In this document: positions 4,208 through 54,301 of the stretch, piece by piece
Layout of the letters: the number at the start of each line of letters is the position of its first letter
How positions within the stretch are numbered: the stretch's first letter is position 1
From: an uncultured Pseudomonadota bacterium
Lineage (GTDB): Bacteria; Pseudomonadota; Alphaproteobacteria; Rs-D84
Reading direction: 5' to 3'
DNA length: 64,000 nucleotides
Assembly (NCBI GenBank): GCA_900320405.1
Contig: OOHM01000002.1
Location: 159,211 to 223,210, forward strand
The notes under the pieces: model-generated
Databases searched by the model: none
Seen by the model: the letters and a program-made list of their open reading frames with translations, nothing else
What the model was told of the DNA's origin: nothing
Made by a program: the position numbers and the translations under genes

Positions 4208-4699
4208 TTACTTGCCAAAATGTTTTTTTAGTGTCTGGTACGCGGACGATATTTGTGTAAATTCGGTGCCGGTTGATTTGCCATTGGCGGTATCGGGGTG
4301 ATATTTTTTTGCAAGCGTTCGATATTTGGCCCCAATTTCACGCCAAGATGCCGTAATTGGTAACCCCAGTGTTTGGAATGCGGCGGTTATATTCGCCGGC
4401 AAAGATTTCTTTGGTGGCATTTTATCAAATGTGCTGCGTCCCGTTATAAAATCATTCAAAAACTTTATATATTCCGCGGAATCTTGTTCAGAACGTTTTT
4501 TTATCGGTTCGCCAAATGTTTGCCGTTCCCAATCTTCTTCGATTTCTTCGGGTGTCATATCGGCATAGAAATTCCAATTTTTATTATATTCGGCCGCGTG
4601 TTCTTGGCAAAAATTCCAATATTCGCGCAAATCGCGTGTTTTCGGTGCGCGGCACGTGCCGGCACGTTGGCATCCCGGAAAATCACATTTTTTTATCAT
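4208..4699 (-). CDS. J-domain protein: N-terminal Cys-rich Zn-ribbon-like segment plus C-terminal DnaJ J-domain (HPD)
   Basis: N-terminus CDFPGC...C...FCQEH. C-terminus REIGAKYRTLAKKYHPDTANG, with the HPD tripeptide. Confidence 0.65.
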   Translation of the reverse strand: MIKKCDFPGCQRAGTCRAPKTRDLREYWNFCQEHAAEYNKNWNFYADMTPEEIEEDWERQTFGEPIKKRSEQDSAEYIKFLNDFITGRSTFDKMPPKKSLPANITAAFQTLGLPITASWREIGAKYRTLAKKYHPDTANGKSTGTEFTQISSAYQTLKKHFGK

Positions 4700-5562
4700 T
4701 TCTTATTAGCCTTGATTTGGGACAATGGATGGTGTTCGGCAACAACTGCGGTTAATTTTTCGGGTAATACGTGAGTATAAATTTGCGTTGTGGAAATATC
4801 TTCGTGCCCCAACATTGTTTGTATTGCACGCAGGTTTGCGCCGTGTGCAAGAAGATGTGACGCGAACGAATGTCGCAATACATGCGGGGTCACGCGTCGC
4901 GGGTCAATTCCGGCCAATACCGCACATTTTTTTAATATCTTGAAAAAACCGTCGCGCGTGATGTGGCCCGATTTGGAATTTGATGGAAATACATATTTTG
5001 AATCGACATCACCGCGAATGTTCAACCATTTTTCCAATGCGTGTCGTGCAGATTCGTGCACCGGAACAATACGTTCTTTGGCGCCTTTGCCGTGAATCAA
5101 TAATCGGTCACCAAGGTTTGCCGTCATTGGTAATTCACACAGTTCGGAAACGCGCAGTCCCGACGCATACAATAATTCAATCATTGCGCGCAGGCGTACC
5201 GATGTGCGAATGTCGCCCGCGGACGATATTAATAATTCTATTTCTTCAAGTGTTAATAATTTTGGTAATGATTTCGCGCGTTTCGGTAATTCCAGGTTGG
5301 TTGTTGGATTTGTATCGATAATTTTTTCCAACATTAAAAATTTATAAAAACTGCGCAGGGCACTTGCCCGCCGGGCAACCGATGATGCGCATATATTTGC
5401 ATCGCCCAGGTATGATTGTATATCGGTTTCGGTTGCGTTCAATAAACCATTTGGCAACGCCGCGTCTGCGTGATTCAAATCGTTCGCGTATGCCGAAAGT
5501 GTATTTCGACTGCGGCCCTTTTCGGCGGACATGGCTTCTAAAAATATATCAATGTATTTCAT
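4696..5562 (-). CDS. xerD: Tyrosine site-specific recombinase XerD/XerC family (chromosome dimer resolution)
   Basis: Core-binding N-terminus (TLSAYANDL) and C-terminal catalytic motifs LRHSFASHLL...LGHEDISTTQIYTHV. Its start overlaps the preceding stop by 4 nt. Confidence 0.85.
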   Translation of the reverse strand: MKYIDIFLEAMSAEKGRSRNTLSAYANDLNHADAALPNGLLNATETDIQSYLGDANICASSVARRASALRSFYKFLMLEKIIDTNPTTNLELPKRAKSLPKLLTLEEIELLISSAGDIRTSVRLRAMIELLYASGLRVSELCELPMTANLGDRLLIHGKGAKERIVPVHESARHALEKWLNIRGDVDSKYVFPSNSKSGHITRDGFFKILKKCAVLAGIDPRRVTPHVLRHSFASHLLAHGANLRAIQTMLGHEDISTTQIYTHVLPEKLTAVVAEHHPLSQIKANKK

Positions 5563-16610: not shown

Positions 16611-16666
16611 ATAAGTCCCCTTCACGTTTCGTGAAAGGGGGGGGCGCGGAACGCGGTGGGGTAGGT

Positions 16667-16756
16667 GGTCGAAATAATCGTACCTTTTTGTCCAGTACTT
16701 TTTTCAAAAATTATTTTCAGTAATTTCAATATGTTATGATTTAGCATAAGTACTGG
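16667..16756 (+). repeat. Cassette copy at 16.67 kb (truncated). It has the conserved leader, the left 21-bp IR arm and the spacer, but only 8 bp of the right arm; the promoter/RBS/start segment is deleted.
   Basis: Near-identical to 28565-28653 and 52470-52559. Homology resumes about 75 bp further on in the other copies. Confidence 0.7.
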
Positions 16757-17235
16757 ATAAAACGGTTGCATCAATTATCGCAATTAATTCAGTCTTCGCA
16801 GATACAATATCAACCGTTACATCACGGGGGTATGTTGATGCGGCGGTCGCAACGAAACAGCCGAAAATTCCCGCCGCCGGTACGAACGCATCTACACCCG
16901 GTGAAACGGTCGTTACATACACATCAACCGGCGATGGCACAATCGGTGAACGCGGAATTGTTGATATGGAAAGTGGATATATTGCGGGCGGTTTGGTTAC
17001 CGCCGAAGCATTAGAAGAGTATGTTAATTGTATGCAGAATCACCAAACGGGCTTTGAATGTGTGGAAGAAAATTCAAATGGTGATTGTATGCTGGTAACC
17101 CTGTTTGAAGAAGATCGGGATTGTGACAACCCGTTTGATGGAAAAATATGCAGCACGAATTCCGATTGCAACCAAAATGAAAATGAACGTTGCTTTAATG
17201 GCAGGTGTGTGGCGGTGGAACCCACAATAGGTTGA
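16750..17235 (+). pseudogene. 5'-deleted member of the polymorphic secreted-protein family: the frame stays open but there is no RBS, start codon or signal peptide N-region
   Basis: In-frame translation ...VASIIAINSVFADTISTVTSRGYVDAAVATKQPKIPAAG...ETVVTYTSTGDGTIGERGIVD... matches the mature N-termini of the 28719 and 52621 genes. The first in-frame ATG is at 16966 (track ORF 16966-17235). The C-terminus carries a Cys-rich module. Confidence 0.55.
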
Positions 17236-43393: not shown

Positions 43394-43469
43394 TGGTGGG
43401 CGCATGGGGACTCGAACCCCAGACCCACTGATTAAGAGTCAGTTGCTCTACCAACTGAGCTATGCACCC
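43394..43469 (-). tRNA. tRNA-Lys (anticodon CTT)
   Basis: Reverse complement folds as a cloverleaf: acceptor GGGTGCA/TGCGCCC, D-arm AGCTCAGTTGGTAGAGC, anticodon stem ACTGA/TCAGT with loop CTCTTAA, T-arm GGTTCGAGTCC, encoded CCA end. 76 nt. Confidence 0.9.
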
Positions 43470-50031: not shown

Positions 50032-50107
50032 GGCCAGATAGCTCAGTTGGTAGAGCAAGGGACTGAAAATCCCTGTGTCAGTGGTTCGATTCCACTTCTG
50101 GCCACCA
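50032..50107 (+). tRNA. tRNA-Phe (anticodon GAA)
   Basis: Acceptor GGCCAGA/TCTGGCC, D-arm TAGCTCAGTTGGTAGAGC, anticodon stem AGGGA/TCCCT with loop CTGAAAA, T-arm GGTTCGATTCC, encoded CCA. Confidence 0.92.
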
Positions 50108-51639: not shown

Positions 51640-51936
51640 TTAATCTCCATCCATAACCTTGGGAACCGCGAAGTATCCACGGCTTACGCCCGATTTGTCG
51701 GGTGCATTTGCCATAACCGCATCGCGAATACCACCGTCGGTGACCGTGTCCGCCCGCCGGGGCAGGTTGTGCGTCGCCGGCGACAGCATTGGTTCAACCC
51801 CACGCGTATCAATTGCCTTTAATTTATCAATCCATTCAATAACGGAATCTATGTTCATTTGTTCCAATTTTTCATCGGAAATATCAATTTTGATAAGGTC
51901 TGCGAATTTATGTAATTGACTCTTGCTAAATGCCAT
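51640..51936 (-). CDS. gatC: Glutamyl-tRNA(Gln) amidotransferase subunit C
   Basis: 98 aa. MAFSKSQLHKFADLIKIDISDEKLEQ... is typical of GatC. Immediately upstream of gatA. Confidence 0.85.
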   Translation of the reverse strand: MAFSKSQLHKFADLIKIDISDEKLEQMNIDSVIEWIDKLKAIDTRGVEPMLSPATHNLPRRADTVTDGGIRDAVMANAPDKSGVSRGYFAVPKVMDGD

Positions 51937-51973
51937 TTTGAATCCTATATTTATACATAAAGGTGATTATACA

Positions 51974-52417
51974 ATGATTTTAGGCGATTTCAAGGTTTTT
52001 CCCCGTATTGGTCGATTGATTGGAATCGATTGGGGTGCACGGCGTACCGGTATTGCCATATCGGATGAAACGCGCAAATTTGTGTTTGCACGCGACCCGA
52101 TTGTAATGAAAAAATCCGACGAATTGGTGGACAAGATTTTGAATTTGGTTCGCGCGGAAAAAATTGCCGGGATTGTGATAGGGTTGCCCCTGCGAACCGA
52201 TGGATCGGAATCAGATACAACAAAAATGGTGCGCGAATTTGCGGAATCTTTGGCGACCGCGACCGATACACCGATTATATTTATAGATGAAACATTGTCA
52301 TCCACCGCGGCACAAGAAGAAATGGGGCGCGTGCGTGTGCGCGACATCAAAGAAAAACTGGATTCAAATGCCGCCCGATTAATATTGGAAAATGCAATCG
52401 CGATGATGGGGCGTTGA
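51974..52417 (+). CDS. ruvX: Putative pre-16S rRNA nuclease / Holliday-junction resolvase-like protein YqgF (RuvX)
   Basis: LIGIDWGARRTGIAISD and the RNase H-like YqgF fold. Confidence 0.85.
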   Translation: MILGDFKVFPRIGRLIGIDWGARRTGIAISDETRKFVFARDPIVMKKSDELVDKILNLVRAEKIAGIVIGLPLRTDGSESDTTKMVREFAESLATATDTPIIFIDETLSSTAAQEEMGRVRVRDIKEKLDSNAARLILENAIAMMGR

Positions 52418-52434
52418 TAGATTGTGTTTAGTAA

Positions 52435-52460
52435 AACCGGCGAGGATTTGCCGGTTTTTT
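52435..52460 (+). terminator. Rho-independent terminator after ruvX
   Basis: aaccggcg-aggattt-gccgg hairpin plus tttttt. Confidence 0.55.
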
Positions 52461-52469
52461 GTTTCGGCT

Positions 52470-52620
52470 GGTCAATTTAATCGTACCTTTTTGTCCAGTA
52501 CTTTTTTCAAAAATTATTTTCAGTAATTTCAATAGGTTATGTTTTGGCATAAGTACTGGTCAAAAAGGTACCTTTAATGCCATAATATATGTGTATAAAA
52601 CAAGCAAGAAAGGAAGGGAT
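52470..52620 (+). repeat. Cassette copy at 52.47 kb (complete). IR arms at 52482-52502 and 52552-52571 (1 mismatch), a 49-nt spacer and a promoter/RBS region up to the ATG at 52621.
   Basis: About 95% identical to 28565-28718 over ~150 bp, in both the IR unit and the downstream cataata...tgtgtataaaacaagca...aggaaggg segment. Confidence 0.75.
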
Positions 52621-53190
52621 ATGAGGATTCCATTTTTAACATTTGGTGCAATTGCATCCGTTTTAACAATCAATTCATCATTTGGGGTATCGTCCACGGT
52701 GACGTCGCGGGGGTATGTTGATGCGGCGGTTGCAACCAAACAGGCGATAATACCGGCCCAGTCGGGTGATTATGTCGTAATGTATCCAAATGACGATAAC
52801 GGCGATGATGATGGCGCGATTGGTATGCGACAAATTATCACCGATGTTGATAATTATAACGATGGCAATGAATTGGTGACGGTTGGTGCGATAAACAATG
52901 CACTGCAAGACAAACAGGATATTATTCCTGCGGGGACCAGTGGTAATTTGGTGACATATACCGGAACGGCGGGTTCGGTTGGTTCGGCATCGGTTTATAA
53001 TGCATCGAATTCATACAGCGGTCAAACCACCGCGTTGGTCCAGGCGCAACATGTGAACGCCGCGGCAATGAATGCGTTTAACGCGCATTTGACATGTAAT
53101 ACATACGATACCAGTGGAACCCAAACGGCGGAACACTGTTTATTGTGGAGTGTGAATAATTTATCAGGCACGTATGTTCCGGGAAATTAA
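52621..53190 (+). CDS. Secreted Gly/Ser/Thr/Asn-rich protein, member of the polymorphic family (signal peptide MRIPFLTFGAIASVLTINSS)
   Basis: N-terminus nearly identical to the 28719 gene for ~25 codons. Motifs STVTSRGYVDAAVATKQAIIPA and a repeated ALQDKQDIIPAGTSGNLVTYTG. A single Cys pair includes HCLLWSV. Confidence 0.7.
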   Translation: MRIPFLTFGAIASVLTINSSFGVSSTVTSRGYVDAAVATKQAIIPAQSGDYVVMYPNDDNGDDDGAIGMRQIITDVDNYNDGNELVTVGAINNALQDKQDIIPAGTSGNLVTYTGTAGSVGSASVYNASNSYSGQTTALVQAQHVNAAAMNAFNAHLTCNTYDTSGTQTAEHCLLWSVNNLSGTYVPGN

Positions 53191-53221: not shown

Positions 53222-54256
53222 ATGAATACAAAATTATTATTACCCATAATTGCAATGACGATAATCCCGGTTGTGTATGCGGACACCGTTACGGTAACCA
53301 GTCAGGATTATGTTGATAATGTTATGAATACAAAACAAAATAAAATTGCGGCCACATCCGGTGACCGGGTTGTGACATATTCGACCACGGCGGGTCAAAC
53401 GGGTTCGCGCGCGATATTGGACGATTTGTCGGGCACGACAACAACGGATATGAACCTGGCCACGGCGATGGCGGCGGGAGATGCCGTATTCAGTAAAAAT
53501 CAACAGGTGTTAAACATTGGCGCGCCAAATGTGTTGACATATTATGGCAATAATATAACATGGGGGGCATTGACGGCGACACCGATATATAATAACACGG
53601 TAAACACATTTTCCAATGGGTTGGTGGATGCGGCGACGTTAAATACGGCAATGACGGTGGCGGCAAATAACGAAATGGTGTGCAGTGAATATGCCCCTGG
53701 TATGCCGGAAACAGATGCGAATTGCATGCTGTGGGAAATAAACACGGCGGCGACGAATCCATTGAACACTACGGCATATTTGCCGGCGAATGTAAATGGG
53801 ACATCGTATTGTTATAAATCGCATAATGGCAATAATAATTCTAGTGGTAAATGTTCAACAACGATGTATAATGCATTTAACAAGGGTGATTGGGGCACGG
53901 TGTTTTCGTATGGCACGGTGACGGGTATAAGTGTATGCAGCGATATAGAACCGTCAATAAAATGGGACTATGATGATGGGGAAAGCCAATGGACCAAATA
54001 CCTGTCGTATCAGGTATCAACAAATCAAAGCGGTGTGCAATCACAATACGATGCATGGGTGTCGGGGGGCCGTTCCGCAACGCCCGTTGGTGGGTATTGT
54101 TATTGTAAATTAACAAATCCATCTGTTTCGGCGGCGCGCTGGGTGTTCAGGATCTCGTACTCCGTTTCGGACTGTGCGAACCTCTGTACGTACTACTGCA
54201 CGAACGCCGTTCGGACCGACGCCGAATTCCGTGGGGCCGTCTTCGGGGCGCAATAG
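53222..54256 (+). CDS. Secreted protein (344 aa), a divergent tandem paralog of the polymorphic family without the cassette
   Basis: Signal peptide MNTKLLLPIIAMTIIPVVYA. Motifs DTVTVTSQDYVDNVMNTKQNKIAATSGDRVVTYS and NCMLWEI. Cys-rich C-terminus. Own RBS aaaggaatg. Confidence 0.65.
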   Translation: MNTKLLLPIIAMTIIPVVYADTVTVTSQDYVDNVMNTKQNKIAATSGDRVVTYSTTAGQTGSRAILDDLSGTTTTDMNLATAMAAGDAVFSKNQQVLNIGAPNVLTYYGNNITWGALTATPIYNNTVNTFSNGLVDAATLNTAMTVAANNEMVCSEYAPGMPETDANCMLWEINTAATNPLNTTAYLPANVNGTSYCYKSHNGNNNSSGKCSTTMYNAFNKGDWGTVFSYGTVTGISVCSDIEPSIKWDYDDGESQWTKYLSYQVSTNQSGVQSQYDAWVSGGRSATPVGGYCYCKLTNPSVSAARWVFRISYSVSDCANLCTYYCTNAVRTDAEFRGAVFGAQ

Positions 54257-54279
54257 GGAACATTTTGTCACAAATAAAA

Positions 54280-54301
54280 ACGCCCAATCGGGCGTTTTTT
54301 A
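54280..54301 (+). terminator. Rho-independent (bidirectional) terminator
   Basis: acgccc-aatc-gggcgt hairpin with a T-run on + and an A-run upstream. Confidence 0.55.

Follow-up and report, generated by a model that had tools for sequence, protein, structure and literature searches.

We analysed a 64,000-nucleotide (nt) window of contig OOHM01000002.1, from an uncultured alphaproteobacterium. All positions are given in the numbering of this window, and L-numbers denote the other contigs and loci with which it was compared. At 52.47 kb, a short non-coding cassette is followed by two genes, P52 and P53; ruvX flanks the pair on one side and a gene for an AI-2E transporter on the other. The cassette is a 5′ regulatory module common to the genes of one protein family. 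Direct-repeat analysis located three copies in the window, at 16647-16808, 28545-28706 and 52450-52611, and the 52-kb and 28-kb copies (w52 and w28) are 88% identical. A core of 56 nt (52479-52534) is the same in all three copies, with zero chance matches expected. Elsewhere in this genome, a fourth copy (L010) retains the left arm of the inverted repeat described below and the promoter block, and its right arm is degenerate. At least four cassette copies are present in this genome, and each heads a gene of the same family. Each of the three window copies lies behind a housekeeping gene unrelated to it (ftsK, hlyIII or ruvX) and the intrinsic terminator of that gene; the ruvX terminator is predicted to insulate the 52.47-kb cassette from read-through.

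Global alignment of the 52-kb and 28-kb loci bounds their common tract at 52470-52671, that is, to codon 17 of P52. The cassette at 52470-52620 matches the 28-kb copy at 136 of 154 positions (88%), and codons 1-17 of the genes that start at 28719 (P28) and 52621 (P52) match at 45 of 51 (88%). Nucleotide identity between the two genes is 46% over codons 18-25 (75% for codons 1-25 pooled), 61% over codons 26-42 and 36% over the remainder. An earlier sequence-only reading of this DNA had described the cassette as shared with the locus at 28565 and had taken the first ~25 codons of the two genes as near-identical. The shared cassette and the identity between the 5′ ends are both found, and there is a third copy; the figure of ~25 codons was overstated, because identity collapses after codon 17. 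In P0024 (locus L007), a 90%-identical orthologue of P52, the upstream region is unrelated and the first ~8 codons differ. The comparison supports a leader and N-terminus that form a module exchanged or homogenised among family genes.

In all three window copies, two 21-nt arms in inverted orientation flank an interior of 47 nt, a repeat that is absent from the sequence-only reading. The P52 protein is encoded in identical form on four listed contigs from other samples (L003, L004, L005 and L006), of which L004 derives from a rumen sample different from that of the window (the samples involved are STEW19 and XIEF21). L005 and L006 are identical to the window. L004 differs from it at 29 of 4,514 bases, and 28 of these 29 fall within 52494-52560; the other is a single-nucleotide polymorphism (SNP) elsewhere. 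Apart from one substitution, the interior of L004 matches the window interior base for base in reverse complement, and the flanks of L004 are identical to those of the window. The single mismatch between the arms (T at 52494 in the left arm, T at 52560 in the right) swaps sides in L004. Both orientations are thus seen in the natural population, with L004 flipped relative to the window, L003, L005 and L006. Because the segment 52494-52560 is reverse-complemented, the crossover can be placed within 52483-52493 and 52561-52571, and a true inversion with crossover in these outer 11 bp of the arms predicts exactly the L004 pattern, transposed mismatch included. Outside the swapped mismatch, the length common to the arms is only 11 bp. 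Word lengths used by assemblers are normally far longer than this, and an assembly artefact in L004 is unlikely because a word length of ~11 or less would be needed. The cassette is an invertible DNA switch, beyond a mere conversion tract.

L003 differs from the window at 2 of 6,570 bases, 52535 and 52546. Both lie within the invertible interior, and with them the interior reads as it does in the 16.6-kb and 28.5-kb copies, a pattern suggestive of gene conversion between cassettes. The duplication or conversion of leader and N-terminus proposed from sequence alone therefore stands as an exchanged module (L007, L003); what it left out is that the same tract is a switch. In a relative, L024, both arms have changed in concert, with the same two changes, to GTACGTTTGTGTCCAGTAC and GTACTGGACACAAACGTAC. 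Each of the two sites in L016, a distant relative, forms a perfect palindrome of 20-22 bp (ACAAAAAGGTACCTTTTTGT) centred on GGTACC, and they lie 124 bp apart. Because the L024 arms changed together and the L016 sites are perfect palindromes, the inverted repeats are, on this comparative evidence, under selection. L016 was the one informative locus from the second of two metagenome scans, the first of which came back empty; a left-arm scan of genome contigs gave the end of a RUG12956 contig as its sole true match.

The orientation of the segment bears directly on the promoter. The right arm (52551-52571) includes a -35-like hexamer, which belongs to the sole sigma-70-like site in the region, and the -10 of that site (52581-52586) lies outside the invertible segment. 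In the three window copies the -35 is degenerate (TGGTCA, TGAACA and TGGATA) and the left arm is perfect in each, such that an in-silico flip gives TGGACA in all three. The promoter scores 9/12 in the window (TGGTCA) versus 10/12 in the flipped L004 (TGGACA). We also rated the 22-nt stretch from -59 to -38 by its match to the Escherichia coli consensus for upstream promoter (UP) elements, NNAAAWWTWTTTTNNNAAANNN, with a maximum of 14; the host here is an alphaproteobacterium, and the consensus is said to go back to Estrem et al. in 1998. The scores of w52, w28, L012 and L024 are 7-9/14 as assembled and 13/14 when flipped in silico, and the naturally flipped L004 scores 13/14. As a background, 1.3e-4 of all window 22-mers score at least 13. 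On flipping, L016 likewise gains TGGACA together with long A-tracts. The window orientation is most likely OFF or low and the L004 orientation ON, because the A/T tract faces away and the -35 is degenerate in the window copies as assembled.

These features suggest how the switch would work. The cassette would be a miniature inverton, a phase-variation switch with 21-nt arms and a 47-nt interior, in which a crossover in the outermost 11 bp of the arms would turn a segment of 67 bp around. Outside this segment, the extended -10, the ribosome-binding site (RBS) and the signal-peptide start would stay fixed; the segment itself would supply the sequence upstream of the -10. In the flipped state, this sequence would be a UP element, A/T-rich and near-consensus, from -59 to -38, with a -35 of TGGACA; in the assembled window state, the UP tract would be directed away and the -35 left degenerate. 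At the centre of the segment lies a sequence that we take to resemble a binding site for integration host factor (IHF), and it may serve as a bending site that lets arms ~50 bp apart meet. A site-specific recombinase would be the flipping agent. The 52.47-kb switch would drive the two-gene operon P52-P53. Because at least four switch copies each head one family gene, a cell could vary the choice of paralogues that it makes.

Table 1 Coordinates of the 52.47-kb switch, its operon and related elements in the window.
Feature	Position	Strand	Details	Basis
Cassette (5′ regulatory module)	52470-52620	+	~150 bp, non-coding	Repeat and alignment analyses
Left inverted-repeat arm	52483-52503	+	21 nt, GTACCTTTTTGTCCAGTACTT; same in 3/3 window copies and L010	
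Right inverted-repeat arm	52551-52571	+	21 nt, AAGTACTGGTCAAAAAGGTAC; 1 mismatch to left arm, at 52560	
Invertible segment	52494-52560	.	67 bp; reverse-complemented in contig L004	Alignment
A/T tract, predicted near-consensus UP element after flip	52504-52522	-	At -59 to -38 when flipped	
Presumed IHF-like site (putative)	52527-52539	+	TTTCAATAGGTTA, centre of segment; one mismatch to consensus WATCAANNNNTTR	
Predicted sigma-70-like promoter	52557-52586	+	-35 TGGTCA, 18-nt spacer, TG-extended -10 CATAAT	
Ribosome-binding site	52612-52618	+	GGAAGGG	Sequence
P52 gene	52621-53190	+	189 aa; orthologues 76-90% identical	
P53 gene	53222-54256	+	344 aa; 31 nt after P52, own RBS	
Variable region of P53	54131-54248	+	Protein ARWVFRISYSVSDCANLCTYYCTNAVRTDAEFRGAVFG	Alignment to L012 variable region and template repeat
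GC hairpin, operon terminator	54276-54300	+	4-nt loop and T-run	
Intrinsic terminator of ruvX (51923-52417)	52433-52464	+		Terminator scan
Second cassette with gene P28	28565-29228	+	Arms 28578-28598 and 28646-28666	
Third cassette with truncated family gene	16667-17235	+	86-bp deletion	
XerD/XerC-like tyrosine recombinase	4696-5562	-	Phage_integrase and N-terminal SAM-like domain	

The first gene behind the switch, P52, starts with MRIPFLTFGAIASVLTINSSFG, and its residues 1-22 or so are probably a Sec-type signal peptide. Profile-profile comparison, with profiles built from 74-75 homologues, aligns residues ~26-75 with residues ~84-130 over 44 columns (probability 95.9%, E 5e-9), in agreement with the internal repeat motif noted in the sequence-only reading. 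An AlphaFold2 model of P52 from a 76-sequence alignment has moderate confidence (predicted local distance difference test (pLDDT) 69) and consists of three helix plus beta-hairpin units. Modules 1 and 2 correspond to the sequence repeat. Module 3 carries C159 and C173; it has no sequence similarity to repeats 1 and 2, although it adopts the same predicted helix and hairpin form. The Cys pair reads C159-x13-C173-LLW, which corrects the spacing of 14 given previously. Residues 105-189 are 61% G/S/T/N/A, as a Gly/Ser/Thr/Asn-rich C-terminus implies, and a low-complexity or disordered tail is rejected by normal entropy (3.6 bits, with only two 12-residue windows at or below a SEG-like entropy of 2.2), by conservation (the tail is among the best-conserved family parts across more than 70 homologues) and by the model, in which it forms a helix and hairpins at pLDDT 70-89. 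A Foldseek search of P52 against PDB gave no match (E >= 0.86). The evidence supports a modular, fibre-like build, which is the part of the earlier adhesin- or fibre-like assignment that we retain; P52 does not stand alone: it opens an operon in which the other gene encodes the variable protein of a diversity-generating retroelement (DGR), as set out below. The exact P52 protein also occurs on a 915,787-bp rumen metagenome scaffold (STEW19-1, SAMEA5383959), with neighbours as in the window.

P53 follows without a cassette of its own. A terminator scan found none between P52 and P53, and one after P53. Residues 24-174 of P53 are 32% identical to P52 (E 4e-15), a common stalk, and P52 ends where the domain bearing the variable region (VR) starts. 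The nature of this domain became apparent from L012, in which the order is gltX, hlyIII, cassette, P52-like gene (79% identical), P53-like gene, repeat, an open reading frame (ORF) of 110 aa and a reverse transcriptase (RVT_1). The 132 nt that end the P53-like gene recur 326 nt downstream at 90% identity. All 13 differences between this VR and the template repeat (TR) fall on TR adenines (13 of 26 A), and none on the 103 non-A positions. Differences confined to template adenines are the hallmark of a DGR. L022 and L024 share this layout, and L022 has a 130-nt VR/TR pair of 88% identity. The reverse transcriptase carries an IGNLTSQ motif, and its best PDB match is 8ub7_A (328 aa, E 7e-42), which we take to be the enzyme of the Bordetella phage DGR. 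Across 33 aligned P53-type proteins, variation is concentrated at ARWVFxxSxSVSxCAxxCAxxCAxxVxxxxxFRGAVFG. The P53 VR in the window ends with a GC-rich block, GGGGCCGTCTTCGGGG, at 54233-54248, and the terminator hairpin behind it may double as a DGR target-recognition hairpin. On these alignments, P53 is a DGR variable protein, of a type whose last ~40 codons are rewritten in related genomes by the adjacent DGR. P52 is without a DGR variable region: its 76-90%-identical orthologues show no hypervariable patch.

Two further observations concern the DGR loci. The 110-aa accessory ORF (MTLDEI...KIDKY[YF]SFS) is conserved in L012 (5333-5665), L022 (6132-6464) and L024 (7664-7996) and has no match to Avd, Pfam or NCBIfam. 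In addition, P53 residues ~75-115 and ~200-212 (window ~53444-53566 and ~53819-53857) are strongly variable among otherwise near-identical orthologues; a second template repeat for these two patches was sought in L012 and L022, and none was seen.

The two genes travel together. A P52-type gene lies directly 5′ of a P53-type gene in the window, L007, L012, L016, L022, L023 and L024, and a variant short-plus-long pairing occurs in L008 and L019. Across the paired loci, the identity of the P52-like protein to P52 falls from about 90% to about 46%. The same genome also encodes a second short paralogue, P0081; behind it come a 501-aa member, whose VR-type domains are degenerate, and next a 718-aa multi-repeat fibre. 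We infer that P52 serves the variable P53 as a stalk partner that does not itself vary; it would most likely co-assemble with P53 via the common stalk modules, or scaffold or anchor it. In L024 (5200-9155), the whole DGR locus lies directly upstream of thrS, a site that in the window is occupied by the 28.5-kb cassette and P28, and the thrS leader is conserved between the two right up to that site. Because the site upstream of thrS holds the DGR locus in L024 and a cassette with P28 in the window, loci have evidently been reshuffled at cassettes, as far as these two arrangements tell.

The C-terminal domain of P53 (~190-344) is modelled at pLDDT ~90, and the VR corresponds to helices 315-341. 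In this model, the CAxx periodicity would turn Cys and Ala to one side of the helix and the variable residues to the opposite side. A 2021 global survey found all annotated VRs on C-type-lectin folds and expected the unannotated ones to be lectin variants (PMC8144416). None of 38 family members matches a C-type-lectin Pfam entry, a family profile has no match among PDB sequences, and a Foldseek search of the P53 model against PDB and BFVD returned nothing at E below 0.1. Because neither Pfam, nor the profile against PDB, nor Foldseek gives a lectin match, the VR domain would be a new scaffold or else a lectin that has diverged very far, two options between which a single monomer model cannot decide.

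We put the probability of the whole account, a mini-inverton that heads the genes of an exported-protein family and whose 52.47-kb copy drives an operon of P52 and a DGR target, at about 0.65. A number of points weigh against it. Only one of the four listed contigs with this exact gene is flipped, and flipped copies were looked for and none seen in L009-L014, L024 and L002; for the other cassette copies and in other species, too, every contig inspected was unflipped. Some copies may not flip at all, because the right arm of the L010 copy is degenerate. No dedicated invertase adjoins the cassette; besides the XerD/XerC-like enzyme no other recombinase was seen in the 64-kb window, and nothing ties that one to the cassettes. 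The 47-nt interior is very short for synapsis, and recombinase-independent template switching at a quasi-palindrome could be an alternative route to the flipped state. The predicted effect is on promoter strength, through the UP element and one -35 base, with no removal of the promoter, and the consensus sequences on which this prediction depends are those of E. coli. The partnership of P52 with P53 is one that we infer, with a model of P52 that is moderate. As to the DGR, the window has neither a TR nor a reverse transcriptase, the 915,787-bp source scaffold carries none of the 120 best homologues of the reverse transcriptase, and the identical P53 protein occurs on 18 contigs; because of these three results, the P53 VR may be frozen in this strain, or P53 may be a target remote from its DGR.

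Four other explanations deserve consideration. The half-palindromes could be operators for a looping dimeric factor, which would make the cassette a static regulated promoter and the flipped contig a rare neutral rearrangement or an assembly error. Each L016 site alone has the perfect palindrome and GGTACC centre typical of an operator, over 20-22 bp, the core AAAGGTACCTTT is confined to the cassettes within the window, the right site overlaps the -35, and nearly all assembled contigs are in one orientation. Palindromes do not discriminate, however, as recombinase sites are usually palindromic too, and a static promoter does not account for a flipped contig with perfect flanks and a transposed arm mismatch. 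Nor does it give a role to the A/T tract beside the left arm, which would have none as assembled yet is conserved in diverged cassettes and becomes a 13/14 UP match, in the exact register, once flipped. We regard a static promoter as unlikely. A tract of duplication or gene conversion and nothing more, ahead of a stand-alone adhesin with a low-complexity tail, would account for the likeness of the copies and leaves the inverted repeats, their covariation and the observed inversion without an explanation. It draws on the sharp bounds of the 52470-52671 tract at 88% identity, on the L007 orthologue that lacks the tract, on the conversion-like SNPs of L003 inside it and on the 61% G/S/T/N/A content of residues 105-189. 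The tail is conserved and modelled as folded, though, and a longer paralogue invariably accompanies the gene, which makes this explanation distinctly improbable.

Transcribed as RNA, the region of the inverted repeat would fold strongly (-36.5 kcal/mol, z = -3.6), and the arms covary in L024, so a 5′-leader structure that controls stability, termination or translation has to be weighed. The left arm would not be transcribed, however, because the only promoter-like site begins inside the right arm; inner arm positions are uncompensated in L012, Rfam scans of the window and the cassette gave no family and only generic hairpin matches far below threshold, and the inversion is an event at the level of DNA. 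We give such a hairpin very little credence. A miniature inverted-repeat mobile element with an outward promoter, inserted ahead of several genes, would be multi-copy with terminal-looking inverted repeats of 21-26 nt, as here, and would fit the different chromosomal sites at which the P52-P53 pair is found across genomes. Against this, the conserved unit runs past the repeats through the RBS to codon 17, copies occur only ahead of the genes of one family and always in one orientation, no copy lies away from family genes in the loci examined, and no target-site duplications are evident in the three-copy alignment; a mobile element is, on balance, equally hard to credit.

The family behind these switches is large. 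A motif scan of the window gives four members: P52, P28, P53 and 16750-17235. P28 (28719-29228, 169 aa) has a Cys-rich C-terminus. The member at 16750-17235 has no start codon; an 86-bp deletion took the -10, the RBS, the ATG and nine codons and sits at a GGT microhomology, and an intact orthologue, P0040 (locus L027), exists in another sample. By this comparison, the gene is to be read as a 5′-truncated pseudogene. Searches of P52, P53, P28 and the pseudogene against Pfam, NCBIfam and PHROGs gave nothing above threshold. A profile search returned 113 relatives, all hypothetical, the few with a source name being Alphaproteobacteria metagenome-assembled genomes, and an exhaustive profile search found at least 1,706 clusters (50% identity, E <= 1e-3), among them proteins as long as 4,750 aa and others in which as many as eight stretches match. 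Pfam gave no meaningful domain on nine large family members and nothing useful on 38 P53 relatives. A tail-fibre homology considered for the motif YVD...KQ...I.A..G was dropped after null searches of PDB, viral structures, PDB profiles and phages, the last including a tblastn of P53 against phages without a match. The family proteins are probably located at the cell surface.

Among the known systems, the mpl (P35 lipoprotein) family of Mycoplasma penetrans appears to be the closest analogue, followed by the Mpi-controlled promoters of Bacteroides fragilis. In the mpl family, each paralogue has its own invertible promoter and one tyrosine recombinase serves them (Horino et al. 2009, as reported in PMC3599477). 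The mpl system shares with the present one an exported-protein multigene family, a small host-associated genome, a short inverted-repeat-flanked switch of its own for each gene, combinatorial ON/OFF states and no need for an adjacent recombinase. It differs in its lipoboxes, where the family described here has signals of the SPase-I (signal peptidase I) type and an alphaproteobacterial host. In addition, the 67-bp segment appears to carry only the putative UP element and part of the -35 and no whole promoter, and one of the present switches drives a DGR target.

The capsular-polysaccharide promoters of B. fragilis are invertible, under global control of the Mpi serine recombinase, and some are strongly biased towards OFF (PMC10403206). 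They resemble the present copies as many dispersed invertons with related inverted repeats, flipped in trans and in control of surface architecture; they differ in that they serve polysaccharide operons, whereas the switches described here serve protein genes. Invertons of Bacteroides span a few hundred bp and contain a complete promoter. The Mpi repeat consensus, which we take to be ARACGTWCGT, resembles the core AAACGTACGT in L024, a lead for which a literature search gave no confirmation. Invertons of under 300 bases are common in surveys (PMC11602134). Like E. coli fimS and Clostridioides difficile cwpV and flgB, the cassette is a short inversion bounded by inverted repeats upstream of an operon for a surface structure. 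In E. coli, fimS is 314 bp long and carries the whole promoter, and architectural bending proteins assist its inversion, to be compared with the central placing of the IHF-like site here. The C. difficile cwpV and flgB switches act after transcription initiation. In contrast to fimS and the C. difficile switches, the effect proposed here is the presence or absence of a UP element together with an optimal -35 base.

Known DGR targets include Mtd of Bordetella phage BPP-1, TvpA of Treponema and LdtA of Legionella. The present DGRs share with known ones a C-terminal VR of the P53 type with a matching TR and adenine-only differences, a small reverse transcriptase with an SQ motif, and a VR that ends in a GC-rich block followed by a hairpin. 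Unlike them, their 110-aa accessory ORF is not Avd, the VR domain has no C-type-lectin match and is modelled as Cys-stapled helices, an invariant short paralogue and an inverton precede the target, and in the window the target is parted from the TR and reverse transcriptase. We know of no standard description of DGRs that includes a conserved invariant partner gene. In a full-text literature search, DGR and inverton occurred together in only three papers, and in no title or abstract of these, which suggests that the two are not yet commonly treated together. Each component belongs to a known kind; what sets the locus apart is their combination, the tiny switch, the apparent UP mechanism, the invariant partner and the unrecognised folds.

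Invertons and DGRs are the two best-known programmed routes to surface variation, and here they appear stacked on one operon of an uncultured rumen lineage with a small genome. The fullest form of the idea, which we advance only tentatively, is a two-layer variation system: family-wide 67-bp mini-invertons that flip a UP element and a single -35 base, with the -10 fixed, in place of an entire promoter; a DGR operon gated by one of them that displays variation on non-lectin, Cys/Ala-striped helices (CAxx CAxx CAxx) disulfide-stapled to a beta-sheet, and P52 as an obligatory stalk partner. If the scaffold part holds, this would be the first DGR VR shown off the C-type-lectin fold. A VR domain that is modelled with confidence and matches no lectin makes a concrete, testable exception to the survey in PMC8144416. 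An unusually small switch that repositions a UP element would broaden the range of inversion-based transcription control. The unannotated family of at least 1,706 clusters would gain its first functional handle, as variable, probably ligand-binding, exported fibres.

Several minor features were also seen. The sole Rfam matches at gathering score in the window are tRNA genes at 43397-43469 (-) and 50032-50104 (+). Cassette-less family paralogues in L008 (2700-3000) and L022 (3690-4000) share another leader of ~250 nt, with blocks GGTTCGGGACTGT and a terminator-like hairpin right before the RBS; it has no Rfam match and may be an undescribed cis-regulatory RNA. In L008, a 30-nt promoter block is repeated ahead of two family genes. 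Downstream of P28, between a TTGACT...TATAAT promoter-like site (~29267-29296) and thrS (start 29450), a small ORF at 29304-29366, MKQFVFIFTTTTTTTPFGVR*, contains a run of seven Thr codons. A T-rich, hairpin-like stretch comes after the ORF, which is conserved in L024 as MKQFLFIFTTTTTTTPAGVR*. By its layout, this ORF looks like a threonine leader-peptide attenuator for threonyl-tRNA synthetase.

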